From IMG/VR virus record IMGVR_UViG_3300045391_005708, positions 16,759 to 80,758 of that record: a stretch of 64,000 nt of DNA, one strand, 5' to 3'. Shown here piece after piece: positions 4,805 through 56,416 of this stretch. Both the position numbers and the translations under genes were made by a program. The stretch is from a virus (lineage: Duplodnaviria; Caudoviricetes). Under the pieces are notes generated by a model that was not told where the DNA came from, ran no database searches, and saw nothing but the letters and a program-made list of their open reading frames with translations. The stretch's first letter is position 1. The number at the start of each line of letters is the position of its first letter.

Positions 4805-5043
4805 CCGGCGCCCCCGACGTGCTCCAGGCCCTTGGCCTTGTTGCGGGTCAGGTGCACGGGGACGCCGACCAGGCCGGAGCCGACGATGCCCGCGACGACC
4901 CACTCGCCGAACTCCTTGAGGCTCGTGCCGCCGTCGTCAGCGATCCACGACCCGAGTACGAGGACCACGAAGGTCAGCGCCGCGGCGACGTACGCCTTGG
5001 TGCTGGTCTGCGGGGTGCCCGGGGCGGGGCTGGGTGTGCTCAT
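4801..5043 (-). CDS. putative holin
   Basis: 80 aa, two TMs, TKAYVAAAL...TRNK; RBS AGGAGG; follows last tail gene. Confidence 0.7.
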   Translation of the reverse strand: MSTPSPAPGTPQTSTKAYVAAALTFVVLVLGSWIADDGGTSLKEFGEWVVAGIVGSGLVGVPVHLTRNKAKGLEHVGGAG

Positions 5044-5082
5044 GGTTTCCTCCTGCTGGGGGCGTCTCTGTCGGGTCCCATT

Positions 5083-8004: not shown

Positions 8005-9217
8005 GGTGGTTCCCCTTCTTCTCGTGCTTCTTCTGCTTGGGGTGCTTGACTTTGATGGTGTGCCTCAACTTGACCCTCTTGCGCCGGACGACGACGGGCC
8101 TGCTGACCCACCTGTGGGCGCCGACCGTGGCCTCCCCGCCGGTCGTCAGCGGGATCGAGCCCTCGTCCCAGGGGATCGACCCGATGTCGTTGGGCATGAC
8201 CAGGTGGTCGTGGTTGTCCAGGTGGAGCGGCGGCACGATGCTGTACGACTGGTCGTACCTGATGTCGCTCACGCTCTTGAGTTCCTGGACCACCCGGTCG
8301 TCTACCTGCTTCTTGCTCTTGAGGCTGTCGTCCTCCAGGACGAGGGGCAGGAACCGCGGCGCGCCGTTGCGCGAGAGGCTGGACGGGGAGAGGTCGTGGC
8401 GCCCGGGCAGTTGCGCGGTCCCCTCCCACGTCTCGGTGATCTTCTTCTTGGTCCGCTTCGAGGTCACCTTGACGTAGTTGCCGAACTCCGTGAAGTCCGT
8501 CTGGCCCTGGGGCAGTTCGAACAGGTCCCTCACCTGGTACCGCGCCCGGTGCGCGTGCAGGTGCTCGCCGACGATCCAGCCGTCGCTCTTGACCTCCAGG
8601 CGCCAGTTGAGTTCCTTGCGCGCGATGCGCTGGGCGACCGGCCAACTCCAGATGCTCGGGTCCTTCATCCCGACCGTGTACGCCCGCTTGAGCCTCTTGT
8701 CGCTCCTGGGGATGCGGTAGTGCCGCTCCCCCGTGTTGCGGAGGATGTCGACGAGCACGTCGGACGCCCTCGCGCCCTTCTTGTACGTCTTCTCGTGGAC
8801 GCCGTGGTTGGCCAGGAGACTCTTGTCGGCCAGTTCGAGGCCGAGTTCCGCGCCGCTCCGGGAGGCCGAGGTGGGCACGCCGACGAACGGGGTCGCGGTG
8901 ACGTGCTGGGACAGGTCCGGCACCCAGACGCGGTGCCGGACCTTCAGCAGGCGGTTGACCCAGATGACGCCCCGGTCGTCGTACGCGAACTTGTGGCCGA
9001 AGGACAGCGCCCTCTCCGGGTCGGAGAAGGTCAGCGAGGCGGTGCGGTCGGGGCCGTCGTCGTCGTGCAGGTCGACCTGGCCGTCGAGCAGGGGGATCTT
9101 GTACAGCGGGCGCTCCTCCAGGTTGCACACGTCCACCCACACGTCGAAGTCGTGGTCGCCCTGGATGAACCTGTTGTACACCGGCAACTGGCTCCGGTTG
9201 AGGTTGAGGTCCTGCAT
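7997..9217 (-). CDS. minor tail protein (baseplate hub-like)
   Basis: 406 aa, second gene after tape measure, Lys/Arg-rich. Confidence 0.75.
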   Translation of the reverse strand: MQDLNLNRSQLPVYNRFIQGDHDFDVWVDVCNLEERPLYKIPLLDGQVDLHDDDGPDRTASLTFSDPERALSFGHKFAYDDRGVIWVNRLLKVRHRVWVPDLSQHVTATPFVGVPTSASRSGAELGLELADKSLLANHGVHEKTYKKGARASDVLVDILRNTGERHYRIPRSDKRLKRAYTVGMKDPSIWSWPVAQRIARKELNWRLEVKSDGWIVGEHLHAHRARYQVRDLFELPQGQTDFTEFGNYVKVTSKRTKKKITETWEGTAQLPGRHDLSPSSLSRNGAPRFLPLVLEDDSLKSKKQVDDRVVQELKSVSDIRYDQSYSIVPPLHLDNHDHLVMPNDIGSIPWDEGSIPLTTGGEATVGAHRWVSRPVVVRRKRVKLRHTIKVKHPKQKKHEKKGNHRG

Positions 9218-15411: not shown

Positions 15412-16489
15412 GGGGGACCCTCGTGGTGCGGAGGTCCGGGCTGGCGACGCTGAAGCCGATGTCGGGCTTGTTGACGCTGGCCACCCAGGCGTCCACGACC
15501 CAGACCCCGGTCTTGCCCTTGTCGAGGTCGTCGAAGGTGTCGAGCATCATGGAGATCGACACGCCAGCCCTGGTGACGGACTGCACGCGGGTCGGCAGTT
15601 CGCAGCCCTTGGAACCGGTGAACGCCTTGGCGAGTTCGAGAGCCAACTTCCCGGCGGCGAGTTGCCCGCCCGCGGGCACGGGGTCGCCGACGCGGATGGT
15701 CACGCCCCACGTCCCGGCCGCGCCCAGGCGCTTGCTCATGTCCTGGCACGTCGGCCAGGTGCCGCCGTCCGTGCGGGTGAGGTACCGGGAGTTGAACAGT
15801 TGGTAGGCGGAGGGGTCGAGGACCACCCCGTCGACCTGGACCTCCGCGACCTCCCACACGGGCTTCTCGAACGCGAGCGACTGGTTGGCCTCGCACCCGC
15901 ACTGGTCGCCGCAGCCCCCGCCGCAGCCGATGTTGAACCACTGGCCCCTCACCAGGGCCGGGTAGAACGGGCGGCCGACCGGCCAGGGCGGCGAGCCCGA
16001 GGTGCCGTAGTAGGTGCTCACCCAGCCCGTGCAGTCCTGGCGGCACGGGCGGATCGTGGCCTCGCACAGGCCGAAGCGGCGCCCGGTCCAGCGCCACAGC
16101 AACTCCGCCGCCATGTCCTCGTATACGGCCATGCCGGACGGGGCGACCGGGAACTCGGCGTCCTCGGGGTAGACCACGGGCCACTCGCACGCGGAGAGCG
16201 CGCCGGAGGGCTCCTCGTCCCGGATCACCAGTTCGAGGAACGCGTCCTCCTGGCGGCCCTGGTCGGTCGTCACGTGGTTGGTGACGGTGTAGGTCCTGGA
16301 GTCGGTGCCGCCGCCGAGGAAGACGGTGACCACGGTGTCCGTGCTGGACTGCGACGTGACGGCGAGGGTGCCGTCGTCCGGGGCGACCGCGACCGTGAAG
16401 GACGTGATCTTCTCGCCCGGCTGGAGGAAGCCCGCCGCCCAGTCGAACTTGTAGTCGAGGACCGCCTGCGGGTCCTTGCTCATCTTCAT
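15404..16489 (-). CDS. head-to-tail adaptor fused to an N-terminal fibre-adaptor-like domain
   Basis: N-terminal KDPQAVLDYKFDW..FL.PGEKI..; then CEWPV..LLWRWTGRRFGLC..IRPC..LPTRVQSVTRAGVS. Confidence 0.7.
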   Translation of the reverse strand: MKMSKDPQAVLDYKFDWAAGFLQPGEKITSFTVAVAPDDGTLAVTSQSSTDTVVTVFLGGGTDSRTYTVTNHVTTDQGRQEDAFLELVIRDEEPSGALSACEWPVVYPEDAEFPVAPSGMAVYEDMAAELLWRWTGRRFGLCEATIRPCRQDCTGWVSTYYGTSGSPPWPVGRPFYPALVRGQWFNIGCGGGCGDQCGCEANQSLAFEKPVWEVAEVQVDGVVLDPSAYQLFNSRYLTRTDGGTWPTCQDMSKRLGAAGTWGVTIRVGDPVPAGGQLAAGKLALELAKAFTGSKGCELPTRVQSVTRAGVSISMMLDTFDDLDKGKTGVWVVDAWVASVNKPDIGFSVASPDLRTTRVPRG

Positions 16490-16497
16490 GGCGCTTC

Positions 16498-18018
16498 CTA
16501 TTCTACCGGCACGGCGCGGTCGTCGCGGCCCACGCGGACCGTCCTGTCGGCCCCCAGGACGGCCACCAGGCGGGCCGCGGCGGGCTCGGTGGACCCCGGG
16601 GCCACGGTCCTGTCGTCCGGCCCCACGCGGACCACCCTGGGGCCGACCAGGGGCGTCACCACGCGGCCCGGCGGGGTGACCGGGGCCACGGTCCCGGCGG
16701 TGTCCAGGGCGGGGGCGCTGTCGGCCTGGTGGCGCGTCAGGGCCAGCAGGCGGGCCAGCAGGTCGGTCCCCCCGGCCGCGTCCACCTGCGCCCTGGCCCG
16801 GGCGGCCGCCCAGGCGGCCGAGTCCGCGGCGGGCGCGGCGTCGCCGGACGCCCGCGACCGGCCGACCGCCCTGGCCCCGGAGTCGGCCGCGGGGGCGCTC
16901 TCCGCGGCCGACCTGGCCCTGGCCGTGCCCCGGGCCTGGCCGTCCGCCGCTGGGGCGCCGTCGGCCGTGCCCCGGGCCTTGGCCGCCTGCCTGGCGGTGG
17001 AGTCGCTGGCCGGGGCGCTGTCGGACGTGCTCCGGGAGAGCACGTGCCCCGTGCTGGACGCGTCGCTGTCCGCCGCGGGGGCGCTGTCGGAGGCGGACCT
17101 GGCGAGGGACTGCGCGCCCCTGGCGGCCACGTCGGACGCGGGGGCGCTGTCGGACAGGGGCCGCGGGTGGGCGGCGCTCCGGGCGGAGGCGTCCGCGCCG
17201 CCGGACGCGTCGCTCCCCAGGCGGCCGAGGCCCTTGACCCAGGTGGGCGAGGTCTCGGTGGCGGGCGCGCTGTCGGACTGCGCGCGGGCCTTGGCGGCCT
17301 GCCTGGCGGGGGAGTCCGCCGCCGGGGCGGACTCGGACGTGCTCCTGGCGAGCGGCTGGGCGGCCCTGGCCGTCGCGTCGAACGCGGGGGCGCCGTCGGA
17401 CTGCAGCCTGCCTTGGCCCTTGAGGTACGCGTTCGAGTCCGCCGCCGGGGCGCTCTCGCTCCCCGGCCTCGGGTGGCCCGCGGCCCGGGCGTCGGCGTCG
17501 GACGCCGGGGCGCTGTCGGCCGCCGACCTGGACCGGCTGCCCGCGGCCGCGGTGCCGTCGGCCGCCGGGGCGCTGTCGGAGGCCGACCTGGCGAGGGCCT
17601 GCGCGGCCCGCGCGGTCGCGTCGGAGGCCGGGGCGCTGTCGGACTGCGACCGCCCGACGCCCCGCTGGTACGCGAGGGCGTCGGAGGCGGGCGCGCTGTC
17701 CGACCCCGCCCGTGGGTGCCCGGCCGCCCTGGCCTGGCTGTCGGACGCGGGCGCGCTGTCGGACTGGCTTCTGGCGAGGGGCTGGGCGGCCCGCGCCGTC
17801 GCGTCGGAGGCGGGCGCGCTGTCGCCCTCCGCCCTCGGGTGCCCGGCCGCGCGGGCGTCGGCGTCGGAGGCCGGGGCGCCGTCGGAGGTCGCTCTGGCGA
17901 GGGCCTGGGCCAGCCTGGCCACGGCGTCCGAGGCCCCCGCCGAGTCGGACGTGCCCCTGGACAGGCTGGTCCCTCCCGCGACGCGCGGCGGGTTCCCGGC
18001 GGAGTAGAGGTACGACAT
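16498..18018 (-). CDS. Ser/Ala-rich tandem-repeat virion protein
   Basis: About 21 repeats of 20-22 aa (SDSAPASDA.ARAA...R), C-terminal RVVRVGPDDRTV motif twice. Confidence 0.8.
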   Translation of the reverse strand: MSYLYSAGNPPRVAGGTSLSRGTSDSAGASDAVARLAQALARATSDGAPASDADARAAGHPRAEGDSAPASDATARAAQPLARSQSDSAPASDSQARAAGHPRAGSDSAPASDALAYQRGVGRSQSDSAPASDATARAAQALARSASDSAPAADGTAAAGSRSRSAADSAPASDADARAAGHPRPGSESAPAADSNAYLKGQGRLQSDGAPAFDATARAAQPLARSTSESAPAADSPARQAAKARAQSDSAPATETSPTWVKGLGRLGSDASGGADASARSAAHPRPLSDSAPASDVAARGAQSLARSASDSAPAADSDASSTGHVLSRSTSDSAPASDSTARQAAKARGTADGAPAADGQARGTARARSAAESAPAADSGARAVGRSRASGDAAPAADSAAWAAARARAQVDAAGGTDLLARLLALTRHQADSAPALDTAGTVAPVTPPGRVVTPLVGPRVVRVGPDDRTVAPGSTEPAAARLVAVLGADRTVRVGRDDRAVPVE

Positions 18019-22769: not shown

Positions 22770-24533
22770 TCAGGAACCGGCGCCGGTCGCGGTGCCGTTC
22801 CGGAGGATGTCGACGCCGATGTGCGTCGAGCCGTCCGGGTTGAGGCCCACGTTGACGACACGGGAGTCGTTCATCCGCTTGGCCACGAGGAACGGGTCCT
22901 CGGTGAACAGCGCGGTGAAGTCGTTCGTGCCGAGGAGGACCGAGTCGTAGATGTTCTCGAACATGATGCTGTCCGTGACACCCTGGACGAAGGTCCCGGC
23001 CGCGTAGAGCAGGAAGGACACGCCGGTCGGCGCGGCGGTGAAGCCGGACGCCGGGGTGGTGGCGATGTCCTGCCAGTCGACCACGTACTGCGGGTTGACG
23101 TTGCGCTGGGCGAACCAGCCGCTGATGCGGGCGTCGGACACGTCGAGGAGGTCGACGCCGGACCGGCGGGCGAGGTCCATGCGGAGGACGCCCTTCACCC
23201 AGTTCGGCAGCACGATCTCCAGCGTCTTGTCGTCCGCGGTGCGGTTGATCGCCCGGTAGTGCATGGCCTGCAGGTCGATTGCGCTGAGGAGCGGCGCGAC
23301 GGCCCCGGCCTGGGCGGCGGGCATGGTCACGGCGGTGGACTGGGTGACCATGCTGTTGATCACCGACGCGCTCTTGCGGTGCGCGTGGGCGTTCAGCGTC
23401 TTGGCCACGTAGTCCTCGATGACCTCCGGGTAGCCCCTCTGCTGGAGCAGGCCCGCGCCGATCGCGACGCCGCAGTAGCCCAGCCGGACCTCCTGGAAGC
23501 CCGGGCAGGGGACGCGGGTCACGGGCTTGGTGCCGCCGCCCGCGCCGTTGTAGTTGCCCGCCTGGTCCTGGGCCTCGGTGTAGCAGAAGCCGGTCGAGGC
23601 GAAGACCGCCGAGTAGTCCGGGCCGATGGTGAACCGGATGCCGCCGCGGTTGATCTGGATCTCGGGGATCGAGACCAGGTTCTCCGCCTCGGTGATGTTC
23701 ACCAGGTCGTACACGGTCTGGGACGGGGCGCACCAGCCGCCGGAGGCCACGAGGCTCCCGCCGGGCAGGTTCCTCTCGTCCGTCGCGTACTTCATGGCGT
23801 CGGCCGGGTCCTCGTCCTTGACGACGGCGCGCTCGTCGAACTCGCGCGGGATGCGGGCGATGGTGAACCGCTCCGACTCCCGCACGCCGCGGGCGCGGGC
23901 GCCCTCGTACGAGGAGGCGTTGAAGCCGTTCAGGCGGCTGTTGATCGCCTTGGCCATGTCCATCGTCGTCATCTTGTCGCCGACGTTGTAGCCCATCGCG
24001 CCCTGGGCCGCGAGGGCGACCGACGTGGGCCTGTCGCCCTCGTCCTCCGCCTCCGGCGCGGGGCGCTGGCTGGCCAGCGCGCCCAGGTCGATCTGGATCG
24101 GCGCGCGCCGCTTCGACAGCGAGGACGTGTCCGCCGCGTCGGCGTCGCCGCCCTCCTTGTCGGGCTCCACGCCCTCGGCCTGGGGCTCGTCGCCGTCCGG
24201 CTCCGAGTCGGCGCCGTCGCCGTCGCCGGTCGGGTCGTCCTCGGTCCCGGTCTGGGCCGAGAGCACCTTGTCGGCGATCTCCTTGGCGCGGTTGCTGCGG
24301 GACAGGGCGGCCGCGTCGCGGTTCCCGGCCTCGCCGCGGAGGGCGTCGATCCCCTCCGCCAGGGCGGCCATCGCGTCCAGGGCCTCGTCGGACGGCGCGG
24401 AGCCGTCCTCCGGCTGCATCGCCTGGAAGGCGGTGACGGCCTGGTCGTGGAGGGCCTGCAGGTCCTCGTCGGAGAGCCCGGTCAGGTCCTCCGGGATCTC
24501 GATCTTGTTGTCCTTGGTCTGCGAGCGAGGCAT
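22770..24533 (-). CDS. major capsid protein (hexamer type) with N-terminal scaffold region
   Basis: 587 aa; acidic helical N-terminus; SLVASGGWCAPSQTVYDL, RGGIRF, FTEDPFLVAKR. Confidence 0.9.
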   Translation of the reverse strand: MPRSQTKDNKIEIPEDLTGLSDEDLQALHDQAVTAFQAMQPEDGSAPSDEALDAMAALAEGIDALRGEAGNRDAAALSRSNRAKEIADKVLSAQTGTEDDPTGDGDGADSEPDGDEPQAEGVEPDKEGGDADAADTSSLSKRRAPIQIDLGALASQRPAPEAEDEGDRPTSVALAAQGAMGYNVGDKMTTMDMAKAINSRLNGFNASSYEGARARGVRESERFTIARIPREFDERAVVKDEDPADAMKYATDERNLPGGSLVASGGWCAPSQTVYDLVNITEAENLVSIPEIQINRGGIRFTIGPDYSAVFASTGFCYTEAQDQAGNYNGAGGGTKPVTRVPCPGFQEVRLGYCGVAIGAGLLQQRGYPEVIEDYVAKTLNAHAHRKSASVINSMVTQSTAVTMPAAQAGAVAPLLSAIDLQAMHYRAINRTADDKTLEIVLPNWVKGVLRMDLARRSGVDLLDVSDARISGWFAQRNVNPQYVVDWQDIATTPASGFTAAPTGVSFLLYAAGTFVQGVTDSIMFENIYDSVLLGTNDFTALFTEDPFLVAKRMNDSRVVNVGLNPDGSTHIGVDILRNGTATGAGS

Positions 24534-28264: not shown

Positions 28265-28495
28265 TCAGGAGCCGACGTCCTCTGTCTGGTACAGGTGCTG
28301 CAGGAAGTCGCTCGGCGTACCGGCGTCGTCCCACTGAAGGTCCACCTGCCCCCCGCGGTCCGCGATGTCCCGCATCTCCTGGACCAGGGTGTCGTAGAGG
28401 GCGCCCTCCTCGTCGCCCTGGACGACGGCCTCCTTGGGCTTGCCGAGTGAGGCCGCCCGGGCCAGCGCGTCCACCCTGTCGGTCGCCACGGTCAC
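28265..28495 (-). CDS. small acidic protein (76 aa), candidate antitoxin/immunity for the zeta-like domain
   Basis: GTG 28495 overlaps the stop of the zeta-domain gene (GTGA); acidic helical sequence. Confidence 0.6.
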   Translation of the reverse strand: MTVATDRVDALARAASLGKPKEAVVQGDEEGALYDTLVQEMRDIADRGGQVDLQWDDAGTPSDFLQHLYQTEDVGS

Positions 28496-31251
28496 TTCCC
28501 TCTCCCTTCCCCCAGCGCCCTGAAGGCGTCGTACTTGGCCTGGTCCGCCACGACCAGCCTCCCCCCGACGTTTCGCGCGAGGAGCGTCGGCGGCTTGGTC
28601 GTGGTGTCGTACAGTTCGAAGCCGTCGAAGCGCGGCGCGAGGTCCGGCACGATGCTGGCCACCGACCTGTGCGTCTCCTCCAGGTAGGCGGGCGGGATGA
28701 ACCTCCCCGTCTTCTCGCCCCTGGCCTGCGCCCTGGCGAGCGCCTCCTCGATCGGCACGGTCGCGTAGATCCCGCGCGTCGTGTAGCCAGCCTCCCGCGC
28801 CTCGTCCAACTTCCCGCCCATCTTCTCGGCCGAGTGGTCCCCGGTCCCGTCCAGCACCACGTCCAGGCCTCGCGCGATCGCGGCCTGCCGGAGCCGCATC
28901 GCGATCATGGACGACTCCTCGTGCACGTAGGCCGCCGCGCCCGGGTCCTTGCGGGCCAGGCCCTCCTGGTACTCGGGGATGTCGCCCTTGATGTCGTCGG
29001 CGTTGATGAAGACGGCGCTCTCCGGCGAGGGGAAGTTCCCCGGGTCGGAGTTGACGATCGTGCTCTTCCCGGCCGCCGGGCCGCCGCCCATGAAGGTGAA
29101 GGTCTTCTCGCCGGAGGGGTTGGGGCGCACGTCCCCGAGGTACTTGGCGACGATCCTGTCGTGCAGGGCCTGTCGCTCCGGGGAGAGGTGGCCGTCCGGG
29201 GTGATGTACTTGGCGACGGACCAGGCCGGGTCGACCTCGCCCAGGTGGACCCGCGACCCGACGTCCCCCTCGCCCCCGGCGCCCACGTCCCCGCGCGAGT
29301 CCGCGCCCGGGTCGTACAGGGTCCAGTCGGCGTCGGCCAGGCTCTCCAGGTCGTCCGCGGCCTGGGTGCCGCGCAGGGCGTCGGCGGCCGCGCGGAGCGG
29401 CGCCGGGTCGTCGCCGGGCTCCCACGATGCCGCGGCGTCGGCCACGTCCTCGGGCAGGTCCAGGCCGCCGACGATCTTGCCCGGGCTGTCGACCCAGCGG
29501 CCGGACAGGCCGCCGTTGCCCTTGGGGACGCGGAGTTCGCCCTCCCACGGCGCGCCGGAGGCCGCCACGGAGTCCGGCTGTCCGGTCAAGGGGAACTCGT
29601 GGCGCTCGTCGCCCCACCACAGCGCGACCGCGTCGAACGGGATGGCCACCACGTCCTGCGCGGCCTCCAGGTCCTCGTCGGCCAGGCCGGGCTCTTCGTC
29701 GCTGCCCCGGTAGCCGACCGTCACGTGGGGCGTGTACTCGGGGTACTTCGTGGCGCCGGAGTCCTGGTACATGCTGTCCAGTTCGCTGTCCACGCTGTCG
29801 CCCCCGCCCAGGGCCTCGAACAGGGCCTGGAGTTCCGGGCTGTCCAGCATCCAGACCTGCGCGCCGGAGTCGCCCAGGGGCTCGACGCCCCTGACGGTCG
29901 CCGCGAACGGCGGGGTGGACCCGGCCACGACCCTGGCGCAGTCGAGGAACAGCGCCTTGCTGGACAGCATCCGCTGGCCGTCCTCGCTGGCGGACGGCTC
30001 GCCGAAGTACGCCAGGGTCGCGTGCTTCTCCTCGGGTCCGATGTAGTGGACCACGGCGTCGTCGTGGGGGATCGCCGCGAACATGATCGAGGGGTCCTCC
30101 GGGTCCGCGCTCGCCCCGCTGGCCAGCGTCTCCGTCCCGGCGGCCGCGTTCTCCAGGCCCTTGATCGCGTCCTGCAGTTGCCTCCTCTGCCCGGGCTCCA
30201 TCTTGTCGGCCCAGCCGTCCAGGAGCCCCTTGACGCTGTTGATGACGCTCTTGACGAGGGCCGCGTCTCCCCCGCCCCCGCCGCCCCCGCCGGGCTGCCC
30301 GGCCCCGGCCGGGGACGACGGGGAGCCCCTGCCCGGCGCGGCCTTCTTGGCCGCCGGGCCGCCCTGCTTGCCTCCCCCGCTGCCGCCCTTGTGTCCCCCG
30401 CCGCCGTGGTGCGGCGCCGCGGCCTGGCCGTTGATGAACGCCTCGGCGTTCTTCTTGATCTTCTCCATGAGGGCCTGGACCTGCGGGCCGGAGAGGTCGG
30501 CCATGAGCGGCCCGAGCGCCTTGAGGATGCCCTCCATGAGCCGCTGCACGCGCTGGGCCTTGCTCAACTTCGGGGGCTTCTTCGCGGGGGCCGCCGGGGC
30601 CTTCTTGGCCGGTGCCTTCTTGCCCGCTCCGCCGCCCGAGCCCTTGGGGATGAATCGCCCGCCCTTCGGCGTCCCGGCGTCGCCGCGCGGGTGGGCGCTC
30701 TCGTCCCAGTTCGGGTCGCCGGTCTTGGTCGGCTTCATCCTGGTCGGGTAGCCCGGCCCCCGGCCCTTCTTGGCCGGGGGGCTGGCCTCGGGGGCCGGGG
30801 GTCGGGCCGTCTCGGGGTCGCCGGGCCGCGAGACGAGCGCCTCGGGGGCGAACAGCCGGAGGAGCGCGTCCTCCTCGCTACCGGCGAAGATGTCGACCAG
30901 GGCGGCCAGGTCCTCCTCGTCGTCCGCCTGGTCGTCCAGGTCCGCGTCGCTGCCGGGGAACCTCGCCCCGACGTACTCGTCCGCCAGCGGGCCGTCCGGC
31001 ACCGCCCAGGGGTCCTCCCCCTCGCGGACGGCCAGGGCGTTGCCCCTGATGTCGGGGGCCGCGTCGTCCGTGTACCACACGAGCCAGATCCCCAGGAACG
31101 TGTTGGGGACCAGGCTCGACGCCTGGACCGTCAGGCCCTCCGTGCCGCGCTGCCCGTCCAGCCACCCCTGGGCCTTCGCGACCGCGGCCTCGGGCGCCAT
31201 GAGCGGCGCCTGCTGGGCCGGGTCGTCCACCATGAGTTCGTCGAGGTCCAT
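28492..31251 (-). CDS. multidomain protein: Imm35/YrhB-like N-terminus, Lys/Ala-rich linker, 2H phosphoesterase, zeta-toxin-type P-loop kinase (919 aa)
   Basis: ATG 31251 overlaps MuF stop; HATL (about 30022) and HVTV (about 29725) 2H motifs; MGGGPAAGKST, INADDIK, VHEESS, VVLDGT zeta motifs. Confidence 0.85.
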   Translation of the reverse strand: MDLDELMVDDPAQQAPLMAPEAAVAKAQGWLDGQRGTEGLTVQASSLVPNTFLGIWLVWYTDDAAPDIRGNALAVREGEDPWAVPDGPLADEYVGARFPGSDADLDDQADDEEDLAALVDIFAGSEEDALLRLFAPEALVSRPGDPETARPPAPEASPPAKKGRGPGYPTRMKPTKTGDPNWDESAHPRGDAGTPKGGRFIPKGSGGGAGKKAPAKKAPAAPAKKPPKLSKAQRVQRLMEGILKALGPLMADLSGPQVQALMEKIKKNAEAFINGQAAAPHHGGGGHKGGSGGGKQGGPAAKKAAPGRGSPSSPAGAGQPGGGGGGGGDAALVKSVINSVKGLLDGWADKMEPGQRRQLQDAIKGLENAAAGTETLASGASADPEDPSIMFAAIPHDDAVVHYIGPEEKHATLAYFGEPSASEDGQRMLSSKALFLDCARVVAGSTPPFAATVRGVEPLGDSGAQVWMLDSPELQALFEALGGGDSVDSELDSMYQDSGATKYPEYTPHVTVGYRGSDEEPGLADEDLEAAQDVVAIPFDAVALWWGDERHEFPLTGQPDSVAASGAPWEGELRVPKGNGGLSGRWVDSPGKIVGGLDLPEDVADAAASWEPGDDPAPLRAAADALRGTQAADDLESLADADWTLYDPGADSRGDVGAGGEGDVGSRVHLGEVDPAWSVAKYITPDGHLSPERQALHDRIVAKYLGDVRPNPSGEKTFTFMGGGPAAGKSTIVNSDPGNFPSPESAVFINADDIKGDIPEYQEGLARKDPGAAAYVHEESSMIAMRLRQAAIARGLDVVLDGTGDHSAEKMGGKLDEAREAGYTTRGIYATVPIEEALARAQARGEKTGRFIPPAYLEETHRSVASIVPDLAPRFDGFELYDTTTKPPTLLARNVGGRLVVADQAKYDAFRALGEGRGK

Positions 31252-38679: not shown

Positions 38680-40290
38680 TCACCGCCGCCCCCGCCCCGC
38701 GTAGTCCCGGCGCCGCCCGGCCGTCGCCTGGCGCCCGCCCGTGTACGCCGCCCGGGCCACGGTGAGCCCCGTCGGGCTCAGGACCGTGGTCGGCCCGCTG
38801 GCCAGCAGGCGCCGGAGGGCCTGGGTGGTCGCGTCCACCTGGTCGTCGTGGGCGGCCGAGGGGAAGCCCTTGTGCTCCGCGAGGAAGTCGGCGACCCACT
38901 CGGCCGACGCGGGGACGGCGACGTTCCCGGCCTCCACGGTAGGCGCGACGGACCGCGCCCGGGCCTCCTTGCTCTCGGTCGGGTTGACCGGGATCACGCC
39001 GGGGATCTCCGAGGTCAGCACGTCGACGACGGCGGTGCCGTTCGCCTTGTCCTCGACCAGGTGCTCGTGCACCCCGTCCGGCACCCACTCCTGGCAGGTG
39101 GCCACGAACCGCTTGAACTCGGCCAGCGTCTCCGTGAACGTCATGCGCCGCCTGACCTGCCGGAGCAGGTACCGCGACGACCCGGACGCGCCCCACAGTT
39201 GGCCGACCACGTAGTCGCTGTCGTCGGTCTTCTTGAAGGCCATGTCCCAACTGGTCAGCACGCGCTCGAAGGACTCCGGCAGCCGCACGAGGTTCGGCGG
39301 CGCGCCCTCCGGCAGGGGCTCGCGGGTCCAGAACCGCCACCAGTCGTTCGAGAAGACCGCTCCGCTCGCGGGCTGCGGGTCCTGCTGGTACTGGGCGGCC
39401 CACTGGTACGAGCCGACCGCCTGCCTGATGTCGGCCCAGCGCTCCAGCGCCCCCGCGGCGTCCTCGACCACGATCGGGCTCAGCAGGGGCTCGCCGGGCG
39501 AGCGGCCGAGGCTGTCGACCGGCCCCTCCTCGTCCGGCCCGCGGTCCACCGCGACCGCCGGGAACGAGATGACCTCGAACTGCGCCGGGTCGCCGTCGTA
39601 CTCCGGGCTCAGCAGGCGGCCGATGAAGTCGTCCTCGTGCCAGCGCGTGCCGATCGCCAGGACCAGGCTCGGGGGGTGCAGCCGGTTGCGCGCGTCGCCG
39701 GTCCACCAGTCCCACACGAAGTCGCGCATCGCCTTGCTGTGCGCGTCGGCGAAGCCCTTCACCACGTCGTCGAGGATCATGACCTTCGCGCCCCGGCCGA
39801 CGATCGACTCCCGGATGGACCGGGACAGGAACACGCCGCCCTCGGTCGTCTCCCACTCCTTCGCCGCCCCCGCGTCGCGCGCGATCTCGACGCCGAGGCC
39901 TTCCCCGCGGTCCTCCACCAGGCGCCGCACGGCCCGGCCCCAGCCGGAGGCCAGGGACGGGTCGTGGGACAGGTTCATGAACTCCCAGCCCGGGTGCCGG
40001 TGCAGGCACCAGGTCGGGAAGTAGACCGTCCCGAGGGTGCTCTTGCCGGTCCGGGGCGGCATCGACACCGTGACCCAGGCGGACCGCCCGGACTCCACCC
40101 GCGCGACGGCCGCCGCCAGCCGGTCGGACAGGTACCTCAGGTGGTCCCGGACGACGTAGCCCGGCTCCAGGTGCAGGGCCAGGTCGGCGGGGGTCCGCCA
40201 CGTCTGGGAGTCGCCGAGGCGCCGGAACACGTCGGCCTGCAGGTCCGCGATCCAGTCGGCCCCGCCGGTCCAGGGGAGGGCGGCGCTCAC
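38680..40290 (-). CDS. terminase large subunit
   Basis: GTG 40290; SMPPRTGKST, ILDDVVKG, GTRWHEDD, SWDMAFK, EDKANG, HDDQVDA. Confidence 0.95.
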   Translation of the reverse strand: MSAALPWTGGADWIADLQADVFRRLGDSQTWRTPADLALHLEPGYVVRDHLRYLSDRLAAAVARVESGRSAWVTVSMPPRTGKSTLGTVYFPTWCLHRHPGWEFMNLSHDPSLASGWGRAVRRLVEDRGEGLGVEIARDAGAAKEWETTEGGVFLSRSIRESIVGRGAKVMILDDVVKGFADAHSKAMRDFVWDWWTGDARNRLHPPSLVLAIGTRWHEDDFIGRLLSPEYDGDPAQFEVISFPAVAVDRGPDEEGPVDSLGRSPGEPLLSPIVVEDAAGALERWADIRQAVGSYQWAAQYQQDPQPASGAVFSNDWWRFWTREPLPEGAPPNLVRLPESFERVLTSWDMAFKKTDDSDYVVGQLWGASGSSRYLLRQVRRRMTFTETLAEFKRFVATCQEWVPDGVHEHLVEDKANGTAVVDVLTSEIPGVIPVNPTESKEARARSVAPTVEAGNVAVPASAEWVADFLAEHKGFPSAAHDDQVDATTQALRRLLASGPTTVLSPTGLTVARAAYTGGRQATAGRRRDYAGRGRR

Positions 40291-40733
40291 GCCACCTCGT
40301 CCCCGACCCAGCGCAGGACCCCGCGGCGGCGGACCCACCGGCCGCCGGTCAGGGCGTGCGGCGCCCCGGGGCGCCTGCCCCCGCGCCGCCTCGACAGGCC
40401 CAGCCTCCTGGCCTGGTAGGACACCGACCCCGGGTGCCGGAAGCCGTGCAGGGCGGCCATCTCCGCCAGCGTGACGCCCGCGGCCCAGTCGGCCTCGAAC
40501 GCCGCGACCTGCTCGGGGGTCGCCAGGACCGGCGGCCGCCCGCCCCGGGGCAGCACGCGGGCGCGCCGCGGCTCCAGCCCCAGGCGCCGGGCGGCCTTGG
40601 CGGGCCCGCTCTCGCCCGCCCAGCCGAACCAGGCGGCCAGGTCCCGCAGGGACACCCCGGCCTCCCAGTGCCGCCTGAAGGAGTCCTCGTCCTCCCGGGT
40701 CCGCAGCACCCACGACGCGCCCACGGCCGTCAC
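40287..40733 (-). CDS. DNA-binding protein with two tandem HTH repeats
   Basis: FRRHWEAGVSLRDLAAWFG..AARRLGL repeated as FEADWAAGVTLAEMAALHG..ARRLGL. Confidence 0.75.
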   Translation of the reverse strand: MTAVGASWVLRTREDEDSFRRHWEAGVSLRDLAAWFGWAGESGPAKAARRLGLEPRRARVLPRGGRPPVLATPEQVAAFEADWAAGVTLAEMAALHGFRHPGSVSYQARRLGLSRRRGGRRPGAPHALTGGRWVRRRGVLRWVGDEVA

Positions 40734-40960
40734 CCCTCCCCGCCGTCGTCCCGGTCGGCCTCCCAGTACTCCAGGCCGCGGTAGGTCTGCGCTGGCCTCC
40801 GCCGCCTGGCCGTCAGCGCGGCCGGGGGCCGCGGCCCGACGCGCAGGGCCTCGAAGTGGACCTCCGTGTCGGCGTCGTCGAGTTCCACCTCCAGGCCCTC
40901 GACCAGGGCCGGGAGGGCGTACCTCCGCGCCCGGGGGGCGGCCGCGACGAAGACCCTCAC
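40730..40960 (-). CDS. hypothetical protein
   Basis: GTG 40960, 7 nt after GAGAAT; GTGA overlap with next gene. Confidence 0.55.
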   Translation of the reverse strand: MRVFVAAAPRARRYALPALVEGLEVELDDADTEVHFEALRVGPRPPAALTARRRRPAQTYRGLEYWEADRDDGGEG

Positions 40961-41141
40961 GGACCCCATTCTCACGCGCCGCCGTCGGCCCGGGGACCCG
41001 GCGCCGGGTCCCCGGCGGCCGCCGCGGGGCGGTTCCACACCTCGTCGCCACCGTCTTGCGAGGTCCACGAGCCGACGCACGCGCCGGTCAGGTGGGGGCC
41101 GTGCGCGGACACCCCCCAGGTCGGCGGGTCACCCTCGCCGG

Positions 41142-41537
41142 TCACGGCCGCGTGTCCCGCTCGACGGCCGCGACGACGGCCAGGCCCAGCGCCAGGAGGA
41201 AGAACACCCCGCCCGCCCACGACCAGCCCCCGTCCAGGCCCAGCAGGCACAGGAACACCACGAGGAAGCACGCGGCCGCGCCGCCCAGCCCCTCGTCGAG
41301 GTCCCGGCGCGCCCGCGGCCGGACGACCGGCCGCGCGCCCGGCGGCGGGTCGCCCCGGTGCCACGAGGCGCCGCAGGGCTCGCAGATCCAGGCGACGACC
41401 TCCCCGGTCGCGCGCAGTTCGACGGCCGTCGCGTCGCGACCGCAGTGCGCGGGCGCCCGGGGGTCGCGCCCCGGGGGCGGGCCGTCCGCGGGCCACCCGC
41501 GCAACTCCCGGAGCCGGGCGCGCGACGCGGCGCTCAC
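41142..41537 (-). CDS. membrane protein with N-terminal Cys/His motif
   Basis: HCG..ICEPC then two TM segments; GTGA overlap. Confidence 0.6.
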   Translation of the reverse strand: MSAASRARLRELRGWPADGPPPGRDPRAPAHCGRDATAVELRATGEVVAWICEPCGASWHRGDPPPGARPVVRPRARRDLDEGLGGAAACFLVVFLCLLGLDGGWSWAGGVFFLLALGLAVVAAVERDTRP

Positions 41538-41803
41538 GGCCGGGCCTCCCCGCACCACGAGCACCGGCCGGGCTCCGCGACGCTGGCCACGTGCGCCCGC
41601 TCCAGGCCGACGACCCCGCCGCGCACGGCGCAGCGCCCCGAGGACCGCGGTGAACGTGTGCTCGAAGCGGGTCTGCACCGCCTGCGGCTGGCCCGGTCCG
41701 GCCGCCCGGACGGCGGGCGCGGCAGGAGCCCCAGCAGGGCCGCAGTGCCCAGGACAGCAAGGGAAGCCAGTGCCGGGGTCAGGGCCGTGAGCGCGGGCCA
41801 CAC
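41534..41803 (-). CDS. hypothetical protein, N-terminal TM
   Basis: Fits tight gene packing; CSWC near C-terminus. Confidence 0.5.
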   Translation of the reverse strand: MWPALTALTPALASLAVLGTAALLGLLPRPPSGRPDRASRRRCRPASSTRSPRSSGRCAVRGGVVGLERAHVASVAEPGRCSWCGEARP

Positions 41804-41804
41804 C

Positions 41805-42194
41805 TCAGTCCGCCGGGACCCAGGCCGAGACGACGCGGCGCACGGGGCGCGCCTCCGTGCCGTCCCGGCGGCCGTTGACGATGCCGCTCAGCGTCCGCGC
41901 GTCCTCCAGCGTCTCGCAGGGCTGGACGCCCTCCGCCCACTCGCCGGGCTTGCCCGCGACCGGCGCCCGCAGGCCCGCCGCGACCTCCTGGCCCAGCGGG
42001 ACGCCCGCGTGCAGCAACTCCGCCGCCGCGCGCGCCGCGCCGTGGTCCGCCGCGCCGGAGACGTGGGCCACGGCCGACGCCCAGGTGTCGGCGTCCACCA
42101 GGAAGTCGCCCTCGTCCGGCCCCAGGTCGACACGCACGCCGCCGTCCGCGGCCCGCTCGAACGACAGCCCGTCCCTCGCCTTGAATCCGCCCAT
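41805..42194 (-). CDS. hypothetical protein (129 aa)
   Basis: RBS GAGAGG; phage codon usage. Confidence 0.7.
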   Translation of the reverse strand: MGGFKARDGLSFERAADGGVRVDLGPDEGDFLVDADTWASAVAHVSGAADHGAARAAAELLHAGVPLGQEVAAGLRAPVAGKPGEWAEGVQPCETLEDARTLSGIVNGRRDGTEARPVRRVVSAWVPAD

Positions 42195-44246: not shown

Positions 44247-44474
44247 TCACGTCAGGCGCCTGTCCCGGCGCCCCATCCGGGGCCACCCGCCGTCGTCGGC
44301 GTGCTCCCGGCGGCACCGCAGGCAGACGCCGACCAGGTGCGTCGCCGGGGCGCCGCAGCCGGGGCACCTGTGCTCGTCGGCGTCGCACCGCGGGCAGCAC
44401 CGCGGGCAGCCGTGCGCCGGGGACTCCCGGCAGGGCTCGTCCGGCGCGTCCGGCCGGTCGGGGACCGGCCTCAC
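44247..44474 (-). CDS. small Cys-rich protein
   Basis: CPRCCPRC..CPGC..CLRC; GTGA overlap with primase-helicase stop. Confidence 0.5.
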   Translation of the reverse strand: MRPVPDRPDAPDEPCRESPAHGCPRCCPRCDADEHRCPGCGAPATHLVGVCLRCRREHADDGGWPRMGRRDRRLT

Positions 44475-46744
44475 TCGTCCTCCCACTCCCGCAGCCGCAG
44501 CCCGCGGAAGCCGTCGACCCCCTTGCGCCGCGCGCGCACGAGGCCGCCGACCTGGGCGAGCCGGGCGAAGAACTTGTGCTTCCCGAGTTTCGACTCGCCG
44601 TCCTCGGCCAGCAGGTACGCCGTCCACAGCGCCGAGTTGCGCGTCCAGGCGTCGGCGTCGAACTCGGCGTGGTCGGCCAGCCAGCGCCGCACGCTGTCGC
44701 CGCTCCGGCCCATCTCGACGCGGGCCTGGAGCACGCTCTCCGGCTCCTCGAACCGGCCGCGGGCCATGAGCACCCGCAGGGCCTCGACCGCCCGGGCGAG
44801 CACGCCGCGCACCTCCGCGGGGTCCAGCAGGCGGTCCGTCAGGCCCGCGTCCTCCCGGCCGTAGAACGAGTGCGGGAACGGGACGACGATCCACCGCGAG
44901 AAGAACGCCTCCGAGGAGTCGTTGACGCCGAACAGGGCGTTCGCCGAGAACACCGGCACCGCCCAGGGCGTGAACGAGAACGGCTGGCCGTACTTCCGGT
45001 CGGCCGACAGCCGGTCGCCGCCGGTCAGGCCCTTGACCAGCGCCGGGCGCTCCATGAACGAGGCGTCGATGTCGCCCGCGATGTTGGCCTGGGCGCCGTA
45101 GACCTCCGCCGTCTTGAACTTGTCCTCCGCGAGGGCGTGCAGGTCGACGTTCGAGACGTTCGCGTCGCCGAGCAGCGCCTGGACCACCCGGAGCAGCGTC
45201 CCCTTGCCGTTCCGGCCCTTCTCGCCCCAGAGCAAGACCGACTTGTGCAGCGGGTTGCCCATCAGCACGAGGTACCCCAGGACCTCCCAGACGAACCCCA
45301 CCGCGTCGTCGGGCAGGACCTCCTGGAGGAACCTGTCGAACCGCGGGCACCGCGCGCCGGGGTCGTACTCGTGGGGCAACTGCACCGTGGACAGGAACGA
45401 CGGGTCGTGGGGCTCCACGAGGCCGGTCCGCCAGCGGACCATCCCGTTGAGGCAGTTGACGTACTCGGGGTGCGTCGGCTCCCGGGTCAGCCGCGGCGTG
45501 TCCGGGCTGTCCCTCAGGAACTCGGTCGTCGTGTTCCTCTTGGCCTGCGTCCAGGCGTCGCCGAAGATCACCGTGACCGCCCCGGCCACGTCGGCCTCGC
45601 CGTCGCGCCAGACGCCGCCGCGGTACGTCAGCAGGCGCCGGTCCAGGGCGTCCACGCCGACCGGCATCGCGGCGGCCAGGTGGCGGGCCAGGGGCTCGAC
45701 GGACAGGCCCCCGCCCTGGCGCGTCCACCGCGCGGGGGAGTAGGAGAACAGGTCCCGCACGTCCGCCGACGCCGGGGGCGGGGCCAGGGGCAGCGGGGCG
45801 AAGTCGTCGGCCGCCTCCGCCTCCAGGGCGACGCTGGGCCAGCCGCCGCCGTCCTCCTCGGCGTACTCCAGCGCGTGCCTGCTGACCTCCTCGTGCTCCC
45901 GGCGCGTCCACGGGTCCGGCCCGGGCGCGGCGCAGGCCGCCTCCCAGGTCAGGTCGTGGACCTCGGCCTCGTCCAGGCAGCCGCCGAGGGCCAGGCGGAA
46001 CAGCGTCGGCAGCCAGGCCATGAGGGCGTTGTTCCGGCCGCCGTAGCCCTCGGAGTTCTCCGCGACCTCCCGGCACGCCTTCTTCAGGATCGAGAACGCC
46101 TTGTCCCTCTGCCGGTCGGACGGCTCGCCGTCGACCGGCTCCAGGTCCGTCCTGTCCTCCCGGGCCGCCCGCACCCTGGCCGTGACGCCCAGGTCGTCGG
46201 CCCGCGCCAGCCACTCGTCGGCGGGGAGCGGCCGCCGGGAGTCCGTCTCGCCCCACCTGTACGGCGTCCCGTCCGCGGGCTCGCTTGCCAGGAACATCAT
46301 CCGCGAGGGCTGGGCGCAGGTCCGGTCGAACTGCCCCGGCCCCAGGGCCTCCACCAGCGCCAGCGTGACCCGCTGGGCCTCCTCGCCGGTCACGTCCCGG
46401 TCCAGGGGCAGGTGGACCCGGTACCGCGGCTCCGCCCCCGTGTGGCTGTTCGTCGTGTGCCAGCACAGCGCGTGGTCGCCCAGGAGCACCTCCAGGTCTT
46501 CCGGGAACCACGGGTCGGCCCTGTCCGCGTCCAGGTAGACGACCGACCGGCTCCTGACGAACTCGTCCGCCTTGCGCGTGCCCTCCAGCAGGCCGCCGAA
46601 GACGCCGCCGCAGTCCTTGCGCTGCCCCGGCGTGGTCAGCCGCACCGCGGCCTTGTACTCCGCCCAGGACAGGCCCTTCGGCAGCCACTCCTCGCTCGTC
46701 CGCGCGGGCGCCTTGGCCAGGCAGACGTGCAGCCGCCTGCTCAC
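44471..46744 (-). CDS. DNA primase-helicase (AEP-type primase plus P4/D5 SF3 helicase)
   Basis: GTG 46744; VYLDAD, HTTNSH..PRYRV; GEKGRNGKGT, KGLTGGD..ADRKY, PVFSAN, RWIVVPF. Confidence 0.92.
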   Translation of the reverse strand: MSRRLHVCLAKAPARTSEEWLPKGLSWAEYKAAVRLTTPGQRKDCGGVFGGLLEGTRKADEFVRSRSVVYLDADRADPWFPEDLEVLLGDHALCWHTTNSHTGAEPRYRVHLPLDRDVTGEEAQRVTLALVEALGPGQFDRTCAQPSRMMFLASEPADGTPYRWGETDSRRPLPADEWLARADDLGVTARVRAAREDRTDLEPVDGEPSDRQRDKAFSILKKACREVAENSEGYGGRNNALMAWLPTLFRLALGGCLDEAEVHDLTWEAACAAPGPDPWTRREHEEVSRHALEYAEEDGGGWPSVALEAEAADDFAPLPLAPPPASADVRDLFSYSPARWTRQGGGLSVEPLARHLAAAMPVGVDALDRRLLTYRGGVWRDGEADVAGAVTVIFGDAWTQAKRNTTTEFLRDSPDTPRLTREPTHPEYVNCLNGMVRWRTGLVEPHDPSFLSTVQLPHEYDPGARCPRFDRFLQEVLPDDAVGFVWEVLGYLVLMGNPLHKSVLLWGEKGRNGKGTLLRVVQALLGDANVSNVDLHALAEDKFKTAEVYGAQANIAGDIDASFMERPALVKGLTGGDRLSADRKYGQPFSFTPWAVPVFSANALFGVNDSSEAFFSRWIVVPFPHSFYGREDAGLTDRLLDPAEVRGVLARAVEALRVLMARGRFEEPESVLQARVEMGRSGDSVRRWLADHAEFDADAWTRNSALWTAYLLAEDGESKLGKHKFFARLAQVGGLVRARRKGVDGFRGLRLREWEDE

Positions 46745-47043
46745 GCGACGGCCTGGAGGTCGTTGGTGGCCTTGTCCCAGGCGGCGCGGTCCCACGACTC
46801 GACCGGCGACAGGCCGACGTGCAGCGTGCCGTCCAGCAGGTAGGCCCGCCGGAGGTCCGGCACCACGGTCACGAAGAACGTGCCGCCCTCCAGCACCAGG
46901 AAGGTCGGATCGCCGCCCCCGCGCGGGTCGTACACGGCCTCCCACCCCGCGTGGTGGAAGAACGCGGCCCACTTCGCTTCGAGCCTGCTCCTGTACTTGA
47001 CGCCGCGGTAGCGCACGGTCGTCTCCGCCTGTGGGGTCGGCAA
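46741..47043 (-). CDS. short PD-(D/E)XK-like nuclease protein
   Basis: YRGVKYRSRLEAKWAAFF..W..YDP motif; appears truncated. Confidence 0.6.
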   Translation of the reverse strand: MPTPQAETTVRYRGVKYRSRLEAKWAAFFHHAGWEAVYDPRGGGDPTFLVLEGGTFFVTVVPDLRRAYLLDGTLHVGLSPVESWDRAAWDKATNDLQAVA

Positions 47044-47172
47044 GGCCGGTCATCCTCTCCGAGGTCGTGTCGCCGCGCGTCTCCCGGTCGTCGGGGTCGG
47101 CCGCGGGCCGGACCGCCCGATCCTACCGCCGCCGGGCGCCGGGCGGGGCGGCTTGCTGGTTCCCCCTGCGGG

Positions 47173-56084: not shown

Positions 56085-56416
56085 GCGCGCTGGACTACGC
56101 GGGCCTGGTCGGCAGGTACGTCCGCATGGAGCGGCCGCTAGTCGAGGTCGAGTACCTGGAGCGCCGGGCCGAGGGCCTGGAACCCGGCGCGCCCTGGGTG
56201 ATCGAGGGCACCGTGGCCTACGTCTACGACAACCCGGCCGGGCGCTCCGGCGGGCCGTGCGTCGAGGTCGTCATGGACTACGGCATGGGCACGCCCGTCT
56301 TCCCGGACGAGGAGTGGACGCTGCACGTCTGGGCCAGCGAGCGCGTCGCCGCGATCTTCGAGCCGACCGTCCGCGACGCGATCCGGCGCCGCCGGGCGTA
56401 CCAGGAGGGGCGTTGA
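56081..56416 (+). CDS. hypothetical protein
   Basis: GTGA overlap. Confidence 0.65.
   Translation: MSALDYAGLVGRYVRMERPLVEVEYLERRAEGLEPGAPWVIEGTVAYVYDNPAGRSGGPCVEVVMDYGMGTPVFPDEEWTLHVWASERVAAIFEPTVRDAIRRRRAYQEGR

Follow-up and report, generated by a model that had tools for sequence, protein, structure and literature searches.

The 919-aa gene and its modules

The locus described here lies in a window of 64,000 nucleotides (the whole stretch of DNA that was analysed), taken from the IMG/VR virus record IMGVR_UViG_3300045391_005708 (Caudoviricetes), and consists of a minus-strand gene for a protein of 919 amino acids (aa), in which a 2H phosphoesterase domain and a P-loop kinase are combined with further modules, and of a short 76-aa open reading frame (ORF) directly downstream (Table 1). 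A first, sequence-only reading had described the 2H-kinase combination as an anti-CBASS or RNA end-healing module. Its observation that the motifs HATL (30013-30024, aa 410-413), HVTV (29716-29727, aa 509-512) and GGGPAAGKST (29059-29088, aa 722-731) are part of a single polypeptide was confirmed. Two of its details had to be corrected: the 2H domain is not placed directly upstream of the kinase, approximately 210 residues with a conserved tag motif and a linker lying between them, and the polypeptide, previously delimited to 28492-30100, extends about 1150 nt past that 5' limit, which adds an N-terminal domain, a tag and a helical module. The open frame is unbroken from 31674 to 28492, with the likely start codon being an ATG at 31251 that shares a TGATG overlap with the stop codon of the MuF gene upstream. 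Moreover, an orthologue from another, unrelated sample (P0003) is 78% identical and has the same architecture, so that the 2H-kinase fusion is no assembly artefact.

The 919-aa gene sits between the gene for a MuF toxin and the prohead protease gene. Phage_Mu_F (PF04233) gave no match to the 919-aa protein in the Pfam scan, this domain being carried by the upstream gene. With at least two unrelated effector domains (2H and zeta-type kinase) and additional modules, all encoded by a single ORF that lies between the MuF gene and the protease gene, the protein is a genuine and well-formed example of the polyvalent effectors already known to be associated with phage heads. Polyvalent proteins were defined by several unrelated effector enzymes per polypeptide, encoded together with portal, MuF and head genes as is the case here, and 2H domains fused to MuF or portal as well as zeta-toxin-like kinases fused to MuF are explicitly listed among them (Iyer, Burroughs, Anand, de Souza and Aravind 2017, PMC5512222; PMC9503650). 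Unlike the listed proteins, the one described here has no MuF or portal domain of its own, and the presence of 2H and zeta in one chain is rare. The helical module in front of the 2H domain recurs before or after the 2H domain in seven relatives (P0013, P0024, P0028-P0031 and P0042).

Table 1 Features of the locus and of the surrounding head genes, with positions in the window.
Feature	Position	Strand	Basis
Polyvalent head-module protein, 919 aa (N-terminal domain, tag, helical module, 2H, tag, zeta-type kinase)	28492-31251	minus	ORF, Pfam and PHROG domains
N-terminal domain, aa 1-135, candidate Imm35/YrhB-like immunity domain	30847-31251	minus	Atlas structural neighbours, gene order
Tag-like variant PRGDAGTPKGGRF (PRG...GGRF type), aa 188-200, at module boundary	30652-30690	minus	regex scan
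Helical "mid" module, aa 236-385, with low-complexity linkers rich in Gly/Lys on both sides	30097-30546	minus	recurrence in relatives
2H phosphoesterase domain, aa 385-560	29572-30099	minus	PF13563, AlphaFold2 model, structural matches
Inter-module tag PKGNGGLSGRW, aa 576-586, within W..LRVPKGN..GRW	29494-29526	minus	motif scan
Zeta/AvrRxo1-type P-loop kinase, aa 655-919 (Walker A 29059-29088; catalytic Asp752 28996-28998)	28495-29289	minus	PF06414, AlphaFold2, residue mapping
Acidic protein of 76 aa, candidate antitoxin or immunity protein for the kinase	28265-28495	minus	overlap, conservation, co-fold
Terminase (Terminase_6N/6C)	38680-40713	minus	family match
Portal-position gene, 619 aa	between terminase and MuF gene	minus	position
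MuF polyvalent toxin, 1713 aa	31251-36392	minus	Pfam, PHROG, NCBIfam matches
Prohead protease/scaffold fusion, 1204 aa	24606-28220	minus	PHROG head maturation protease and virion structural matches
Capsid-position gene	22770-24533	minus	position

The kinase domain and its small downstream partner

The C-terminal domain matches the Pfam family Zeta_toxin (PF06414) at aa 712-873 with 89-92 bits (cut-off 22.3, E 3e-25), and its AlphaFold2 model, with a predicted local distance difference test (pLDDT) value of 91.2, matched the expected fold. VIA Z scores for this model were 19.8 for AvrRxo1-ORF1 (238 aa aligned, 20% identity), 19.0 for zeta (220 aa) and 18.0 for PezT (210 aa), whereas the best polynucleotide kinase (PNK) reached 13.7 over approximately 158 aligned aa, and the Foldseek ranking agrees (E 1.6e-10 for AvrRxo1 compared to E 5e-5 for PNKs). 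A profile of the kinase clade aligned to zeta (E 1.3e-7) equates zeta D67 with D752 and zeta E116-G-T-G-R120 with D801-G-T-G-D805. Furthermore, the Walker lysine K729, D752, K755, R844, R850 and H861 are invariant across approximately 60 aligned viral members of the clade. In AvrRxo1, the clade motif VHEESS corresponds to VHSESS, which it resembles more than it does the zeta sequence. Although AvrRxo1 is the top structural match, the NCBIfam model for XopAJ/AvrRxo1 (NF041405) gave 14 bits, below its cut-off of 300. Taken together, the structural models place the kinase in the zeta/AvrRxo1 group and not among the polynucleotide kinases.

With zeta, PezT and AvrRxo1 the kinase has in common the fold, the Walker A lysine, the catalytic aspartate and conserved arginines, but it differs from zeta and PezT at two positions. 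Where zeta has the GTXR arginine (R120), the protein described here has D805 and the aligned clade members have D (46), N (13) or G (3) and in no case R; zeta E100 corresponds to M785 and to K in most clade members. GTXR (zeta G117-T121) is the reported motif for binding of UDP-N-acetylglucosamine (UNAG; PMC6362051), and since its arginine is absent from the clade, a canonical UNAG specificity is doubtful. Moreover, zeta and AvrRxo1 are free toxins, whereas the kinase forms part of a virion-module protein. We found the clade on at least 316 IMG/VR contigs across many phyla, compared to 20 loci in 185,579 species genomes; the kinase is never free-standing here and, in most of about 100 loci, makes up the C-terminus of a large head-module protein such as MuF or portal, and in Cyanophage PSS2 it lies within a minor head protein.

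The GTG of the 76-aa ORF overlaps the TGA of the kinase gene and is preceded by a purine-rich, Shine-Dalgarno-like stretch. Its G+C content at third codon positions is 0.95, and 20 synonymous and 16 non-synonymous codon differences separate it from its orthologue. That the ORF might be an artefact of an alternative frame in high-GC DNA was considered and rejected, since its codon bias, the pattern of synonymous and non-synonymous differences, the Shine-Dalgarno-like sequence and the conservation across phyla all speak against it. No family match was obtained for the 76-aa ORF in Pfam, NCBIfam and PHROG scans, and a profile of its family searched against the PDB gave chance-level matches only (RNase H, ammonia lyases), with no epsilon, PezA or Arc1 among them.

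In each of the seven loci inspected first, which include MuF-kinase and portal-2H-kinase fusions, the kinase is followed by a small ORF of 57-97 aa, and these ORFs align as a single, weakly conserved two-helix family. For a broader survey, the first downstream ORF at 80 of the 316 kinase-bearing IMG/VR contigs was compared with the hidden Markov model (HMM) of this family (E<=1e-3). It matched at 56 of the 80 loci, at 40 of which the ORF overlaps the kinase gene by -4 or -1, and the kinase domain ends a median of three residues before the stop codon. At seven of the IMG/VR loci, the small module forms the N-terminus of a longer downstream protein. Additionally, the family was matched in five out of 20 more distant loci from cellular genomes, spread over many phyla. 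At a locus that encodes the N-terminal domain and the 2H domain without the kinase (L010), the protease gene comes next and the small ORF is absent.

Co-folding of the kinase with the 76-aa protein gave ipSAE values of 0.80, 0.79 and 0.81, compared to 0.00 for the best control, with a partner pLDDT of 76-78 and agreement between the runs in at least 70% of contacts. The mark applied here was reached by 58 of 80 solved complexes and by two of 110 mismatched pairs, counts that are only rough since own alignments were used. The predicted interface comprises D752, K755, H777-S781, G802 and T848-R850, i.e., the catalytic cleft. Because the partner is conserved downstream and is predicted to cover the catalytic cleft, the kinase would behave as a toxin with its immunity protein, and a layout of C-terminal toxin followed by immunity gene contradicts the view of the kinase as a harmless repair enzyme. 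The 76-aa family looks like a dedicated inhibitor of the kinase, so far unannotated and previously undescribed. It resembles the epsilon, PezA and Arc1 systems in being a small helical partner predicted over the active cleft, and the order of kinase and then small partner is also found in AvrRxo1-Arc1 (PMC4938570). In contrast to epsilon and PezA, the partner lies downstream and not upstream, and it has no sequence similarity to epsilon, PezA or Arc1.

A kinase with a small ORF could likewise be an ordinary toxin-antitoxin or exclusion module that lies by chance in the head operon and acts, unpackaged, within the cell that produces the phage or is infected by it, and AvrRxo1-Arc1 does have a similar layout, in which a small partner comes after the toxin. 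We regard this as improbable, since the kinase is a C-terminal domain of large head-module proteins in most of the loci and never free-standing, is far commoner in viral contigs than in species genomes, and, in the 2H-kinase protein, is accompanied by an inter-module tag that the MuF and protease proteins also carry.

The 2H domain and its relation to the kinase

The 2H domain matches the Pfam family 2_5_RNA_ligase2 (PF13563) at aa 410-549 with 37-39.8 bits (cut-off 27, E 3e-9), and its AlphaFold2 model (pLDDT 93.9) matched the expected fold with a Foldseek probability of 1.0. In the two catalytic motifs, H410-A-T412 and H509-V-T511, the histidines and threonines are invariant or nearly so in alignments of 31 and 71 members. 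The VIA Z scores for the model were 14.2 for TT0787 (1iuh), 13.1 and 13.0 for the cyclic phosphodiesterases (CPDases) of Arabidopsis and D. radiodurans, approximately 12 for E. coli LigT, 11.3 for rotavirus VP3, 9.6 for Acb1 (7t26, 119 aa aligned) and 8.9 for the penguinpox cGAMP phosphodiesterase. The Pfam model of Acb1 (PF23474) gave 18.9 bits, below its cut-off of 27, with an alignment limited to domain residues 113-134 around the second HxT. In a structure search of BFVD, actinophage "capsid morphogenesis" and structural proteins came first (E 3e-13), and Acb1 proteins appeared from rank 25 (E 8.5e-5). Single-sequence phmmer searches of the 2H or kinase domain against PDB sequences gave nothing useful, namely only a non-significant match to the penguinpox cGAMP phosphodiesterase (E 1.4). 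As modelled, the 2H domain is thus LigT/CPDase-like in structure and nearer to these enzymes than to Acb1.

An exhaustive search yielded 230 cluster representatives of the 2H clade, nearly all of them within proteins of 300-1400 aa. Among the 71 nearest relatives, a MuF domain is present in 20, DUF7211 (PF23847) in 17 and zeta in none, and the Acb1 model touches five. In isolated Arthrobacter and Microbacterium phages, the domain lies within genes annotated as capsid maturation protease. The domain belongs to the 2H clade that Iyer et al. had described from head proteins, which they report never to accompany RNA ligases (PMC5512222), and for which a role as RNase or in the degradation of nucleotide signals has been proposed when fused to head proteins (PMC5512222; PMC9503650). 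An anti-signal role of the 2H domain is plausible, and as a conjecture for head-fused 2H domains it is already published. The Acb1 anti-CBASS nucleases (Hobbs et al. 2022, PMC9117128) are likewise phage-encoded 2H folds with two HxT motifs; compared to them, the domain studied here is larger, LigT/CPDase-like and below the Pfam threshold, its nearest viral structures are actinophage capsid-morphogenesis proteins, and it is embedded in a 919-aa head-module protein, whereas the Acb1 proteins among the structures listed are free proteins of approximately 137-177 aa.

These comparisons bear on the possibility of a two-pronged anti-signalling enzyme, in which the 2H domain would cleave cyclic oligonucleotide alarms like Acb1, the kinase would inactivate signals or their NAD (nicotinamide adenine dinucleotide) or NTP (nucleoside triphosphate) precursors, and the small protein would serve as a packaging chaperone. 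The 2H domain is intact, the prediction has been published for MuF- and portal-fused 2H domains, and the Acb1 model is touched by some of the relatives; moreover, the protein that the kinase matches best in structure, AvrRxo1, acts on NAD by phosphorylating its 3'-OH (PMC5087710), and the AvrRxo1 partner Arc1 doubles as a chaperone (PMC4938570). We nevertheless consider such an enzyme unlikely, given the sub-threshold Acb1 score confined to the second HxT and the position of the Acb1 structures below LigT/CPDase (Z 9.6 vs 12-14; BFVD rank 25 or lower). Furthermore, a partner predicted on the catalytic residues points to inhibitor behaviour, and the rarity of 2H and zeta in the same protein speaks against an obligate team.

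A local HMM search of approximately 150 representatives of the 2H family found zeta only in P0002, P0003 and P0016, and weakly in P0171. Conversely, none of the 80 viral zeta ORFs contains a 2H domain, and a 2H domain is encoded by an adjacent gene in three loci. Judged by these sequence surveys, the 2H domain and the kinase are independent modules and not an obligate partnership.

In fungal and plant tRNA ligases, the half responsible for healing consists of a 2H domain together with a P-loop kinase, and the sequence-only reading had accordingly offered RNA end-healing as one of its branches. As in Trl1/Pnkp, the 2H domain would open 2',3'-cyclic phosphates, the kinase would phosphorylate the 5'-OH of tRNA cut by host anticodon nucleases and a ligase would seal the ends. 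Trl1, plant tRNA ligase and CNPase indeed combine a P-loop kinase with a 2H domain in a single polypeptide, a structural relationship between the kinase and PNKs can be detected (Z 11-13.7), and a short segment of the lid is similar to Pnkp1, albeit at no better than E 0.28. Against this, the zeta/AvrRxo1 match extends over 210-238 residues with Z 18-19.8 compared to 158 residues with Z 13.7 for the PNK, and the domain order is reversed relative to Trl1, plant tRNA ligase and CNPase. In the complete phage genome, Rnl2-type ligases (PF09414) and RtcB are absent according to searches whose positive controls worked, and the search for Rnl1 (PF09511) was uninformative, the control genomes having given no match. 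In addition, 2H and zeta almost never co-occur, head-associated 2H domains are reported never to occur with RNA ligases (PMC5512222), and a repair enzyme would need no partner that covers its cleft. Since a PNK-type kinase, a ligase of the Rnl2 or RtcB type and a consistent domain partnership are all missing, Trl1-like healing is very improbable. On four grounds, i.e., the zeta/AvrRxo1-type kinase, its dedicated inhibitor-like partner, the rare co-occurrence of 2H and zeta and the lack of an Rnl2-type or RtcB ligase in the genome, neither RNA end-healing nor the accompanying claim that the zeta-like domain would not be a toxin was supported.

Gene order, proposed mechanism and known systems

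The upstream MuF protein is itself polyvalent: its Phage_Mu_F domain (aa 202-297) is followed by a tag, a linker module and a long middle part without Pfam match, and it ends in a papain-fold toxin domain of the Gln_amidase type (aa 1433-1557). The linker module, which ends in DWTLFD, is also found in the 2H-kinase protein. Directly after a gene that ends in a Gln_amidase-type domain, the N-terminal domain of the 919-aa protein is found not only in the window but also at two other loci (L001 and L008), and it opens four further 2H proteins (P0027, P0032, P0024 and P0035). Neither this domain nor four of its relatives matched a family in Pfam, NCBIfam and PHROG scans, and an Atlas feature search gave no usable match; weak neighbours in the Atlas structure search include Imm35/YrhB clusters (TM 0.55 and 0.47). 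Based on these structural neighbours and the gene order, the N-terminal domain is probably an immunity module for the papain-fold deamidase that ends the upstream MuF protein. The same habit of fusion is seen in the seven viral loci in which the small partner of the kinase is fused to the front of the next gene. The simplest reading is then a chain, in which a MuF papain-fold toxin is followed by an immunity-like domain joined to the 2H domain and the kinase toxin, and these by the small immunity protein.

Among its relatives, the N-terminal domain has a length of approximately 100-135 aa and an invariant PN..G.W.V, and it always opens a 2H-bearing gene (L008, 713-1012; L010, 20-319; L011, 153-545). 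Wherever the preceding gene can be seen, the domain comes after a toxin C-terminus of the Gln_amidase type. At the three loci with a 2H domain in the gene after the kinase gene (L021, L022 and L024, ~4630-8270), this domain lies at approximately aa 137-309. The N-terminus of the downstream 2H gene matches the small immunity-like family in L022 (E 1e-4), and those of L021 and L024 remain below the pass of the family HMM. The design in L022 would be an immunity-like head followed by 2H as in the window, but with reverse gene order.

The MuF protein (aa 327, 35414), the 919-aa protein (aa 576, 29526) and the protease-scaffold protein (aa 571, 26510) each contain exactly one copy of the inter-module tag W..LR[IV]P[KR]GN..G[RQ]W, and each copy sits just past a globular domain. 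The shared tag may be a signal for loading or for cleavage by the protease. Motifs of the same kind as the variant at aa 188-200 are also found in P0012, P0013 and P0016, and the boundary motifs in relatives take the form [HQ]PR..G[RK][FW] or G.KGMKWG. Of 153 2H-family proteins, 45 have the second form, located behind the 2H domain.

With moderate confidence, we propose that the 919-aa protein is a head-module polyvalent effector of independent modules with a guarded toxin kinase, rather than one two-step pathway. It would probably be loaded into the capsid and ejected together with the DNA. This is the part of the earlier proposal, an anti-defence enzyme delivered at infection, that is favoured by the head-gene context, i.e., the position between MuF and protease and the fusion of both domain types to MuF, portal or capsid-morphogenesis proteins in relatives; its RNA-healing branch does not stand. 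The kinase is predicted to be an active small-molecule kinase of the zeta/AvrRxo1 type that poisons a nucleotide-type metabolite, with an NAD-like or UDP-sugar acceptor being most likely. In the producing cell it would need to be silenced, because the gene is expressed late there, and the 76-aa product of the translationally coupled downstream gene would do so by capping the catalytic cleft. The 2H domain would act as a separate, intact phosphodiesterase to which no inhibitor of its own can be assigned; its substrate would most likely arise only in the attacked cell, as cyclic or 2'-5'-linked nucleotide signals or as 2',3'-cyclic-phosphate ends. The N-terminal domain would probably neutralise the upstream papain-fold deamidase, which leads to an order of toxin, immunity-effector-toxin and immunity.

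Several observations weigh against this proposal of independent modules with a guarded kinase. No recognisable member of the small family was found at 24 of the 80 viral and 15 of the 20 genomic loci, most of which have another small ORF. The complexes of zeta-epsilon, PezAT and AvrRxo1-Arc1 have solved structures, and the co-fold pass may for this reason partly reflect a learned binding mode; countering this, no similarity in sequence could be detected between the small partner and any antitoxin of solved structure. The Imm35-like call on the N-terminal domain rests solely on Atlas neighbours at TM ~0.5, and it is confounded because the domain always accompanies the 2H domain as well. Finally, 2H and zeta do occur together in the distant portal fusion P0016 and in adjacent genes of L021, L022 and L024, so some functional link between them is possible.

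A more speculative variant combines the modules in a dual anti-signalling warhead. Delivered pre-made by the capsid, the kinase would phosphorylate the adenosine 3'-OH of NAD or related nucleotides at the very onset of infection and thereby deprive TIR/Thoeris-type and other NAD-consuming defences of their substrate or of a signal precursor, while the 2H domain would destroy cyclic-oligonucleotide signals, the whole being guarded in the producing cell by the new inhibitor family of 60-75 aa. This variant, which draws on the structural likeness to AvrRxo1, on the loss of the arginine that binds UNAG and on what has been conjectured in print for 2H domains fused to head proteins, appears quite unlikely to us.

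The IMG/VR source record is a complete virus of 80,758 bp with direct terminal repeats, and the G+C content of the window is approximately 72%, with two 2-kb stretches (16001-18000 and 40001-42000) reaching 79%. The head-assembly block lies on the minus strand in the order terminase, portal-position gene, MuF gene, 919-aa gene, protease-scaffold gene and capsid-position gene. The protease-scaffold protein consists of a protease core and the tag, followed by a very long acidic, low-complexity, helical C-terminal half. Replication genes comprise a D5_N/DUF5906 primase-helicase (44471-47053, minus strand) and an SNF2-type helicase (56257-57810, plus strand). A search for a tyrosine integrase in the complete genome found none, and the phage may therefore be lytic.

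Compared with described systems, the locus is similar to the MuF polymorphic toxins described from temperate phages (Jamet et al. 2017, PMC5576092), in which a C-terminal toxin on a head protein is directly followed by a small immunity or immunity-like gene; zeta and kinase toxins are not mentioned in that paper. Unlike there, the carrier is not MuF, no tyrosine integrase was found, and an immunity-like module can form the N-terminal part of the effector gene that comes next. In the main text of PMC5512222 the term "immunity protein" does not occur; there, a weakening of the cell wall via UNAG phosphorylation was proposed for the zeta-like kinases, from which the clade described here differs by the absence of the UNAG-binding arginine. 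The new element is thus the kinase-immunity cassette, comprising a phage-borne zeta/AvrRxo1-type clade without the UNAG arginine, its constant C-terminal position in the carrier, an unannotated family of small guard proteins and a daisy-chained order of toxin and immunity modules.

Overall, head-packaged polyvalent effectors have been widely predicted and almost never tested, and this locus makes one of them concretely testable. A kinase clade with a clear active site and a family of putative small inhibitors offers a simple toxicity-and-rescue assay. The RNA-repair reading is removed, and the anti-signal reading of the 2H domain stays as a testable, already published conjecture. If true, the chain of toxin and immunity modules would show how phages carry several self-dangerous enzymes in one late operon, and would allow further packaged toxins to be recognised from gene order alone.

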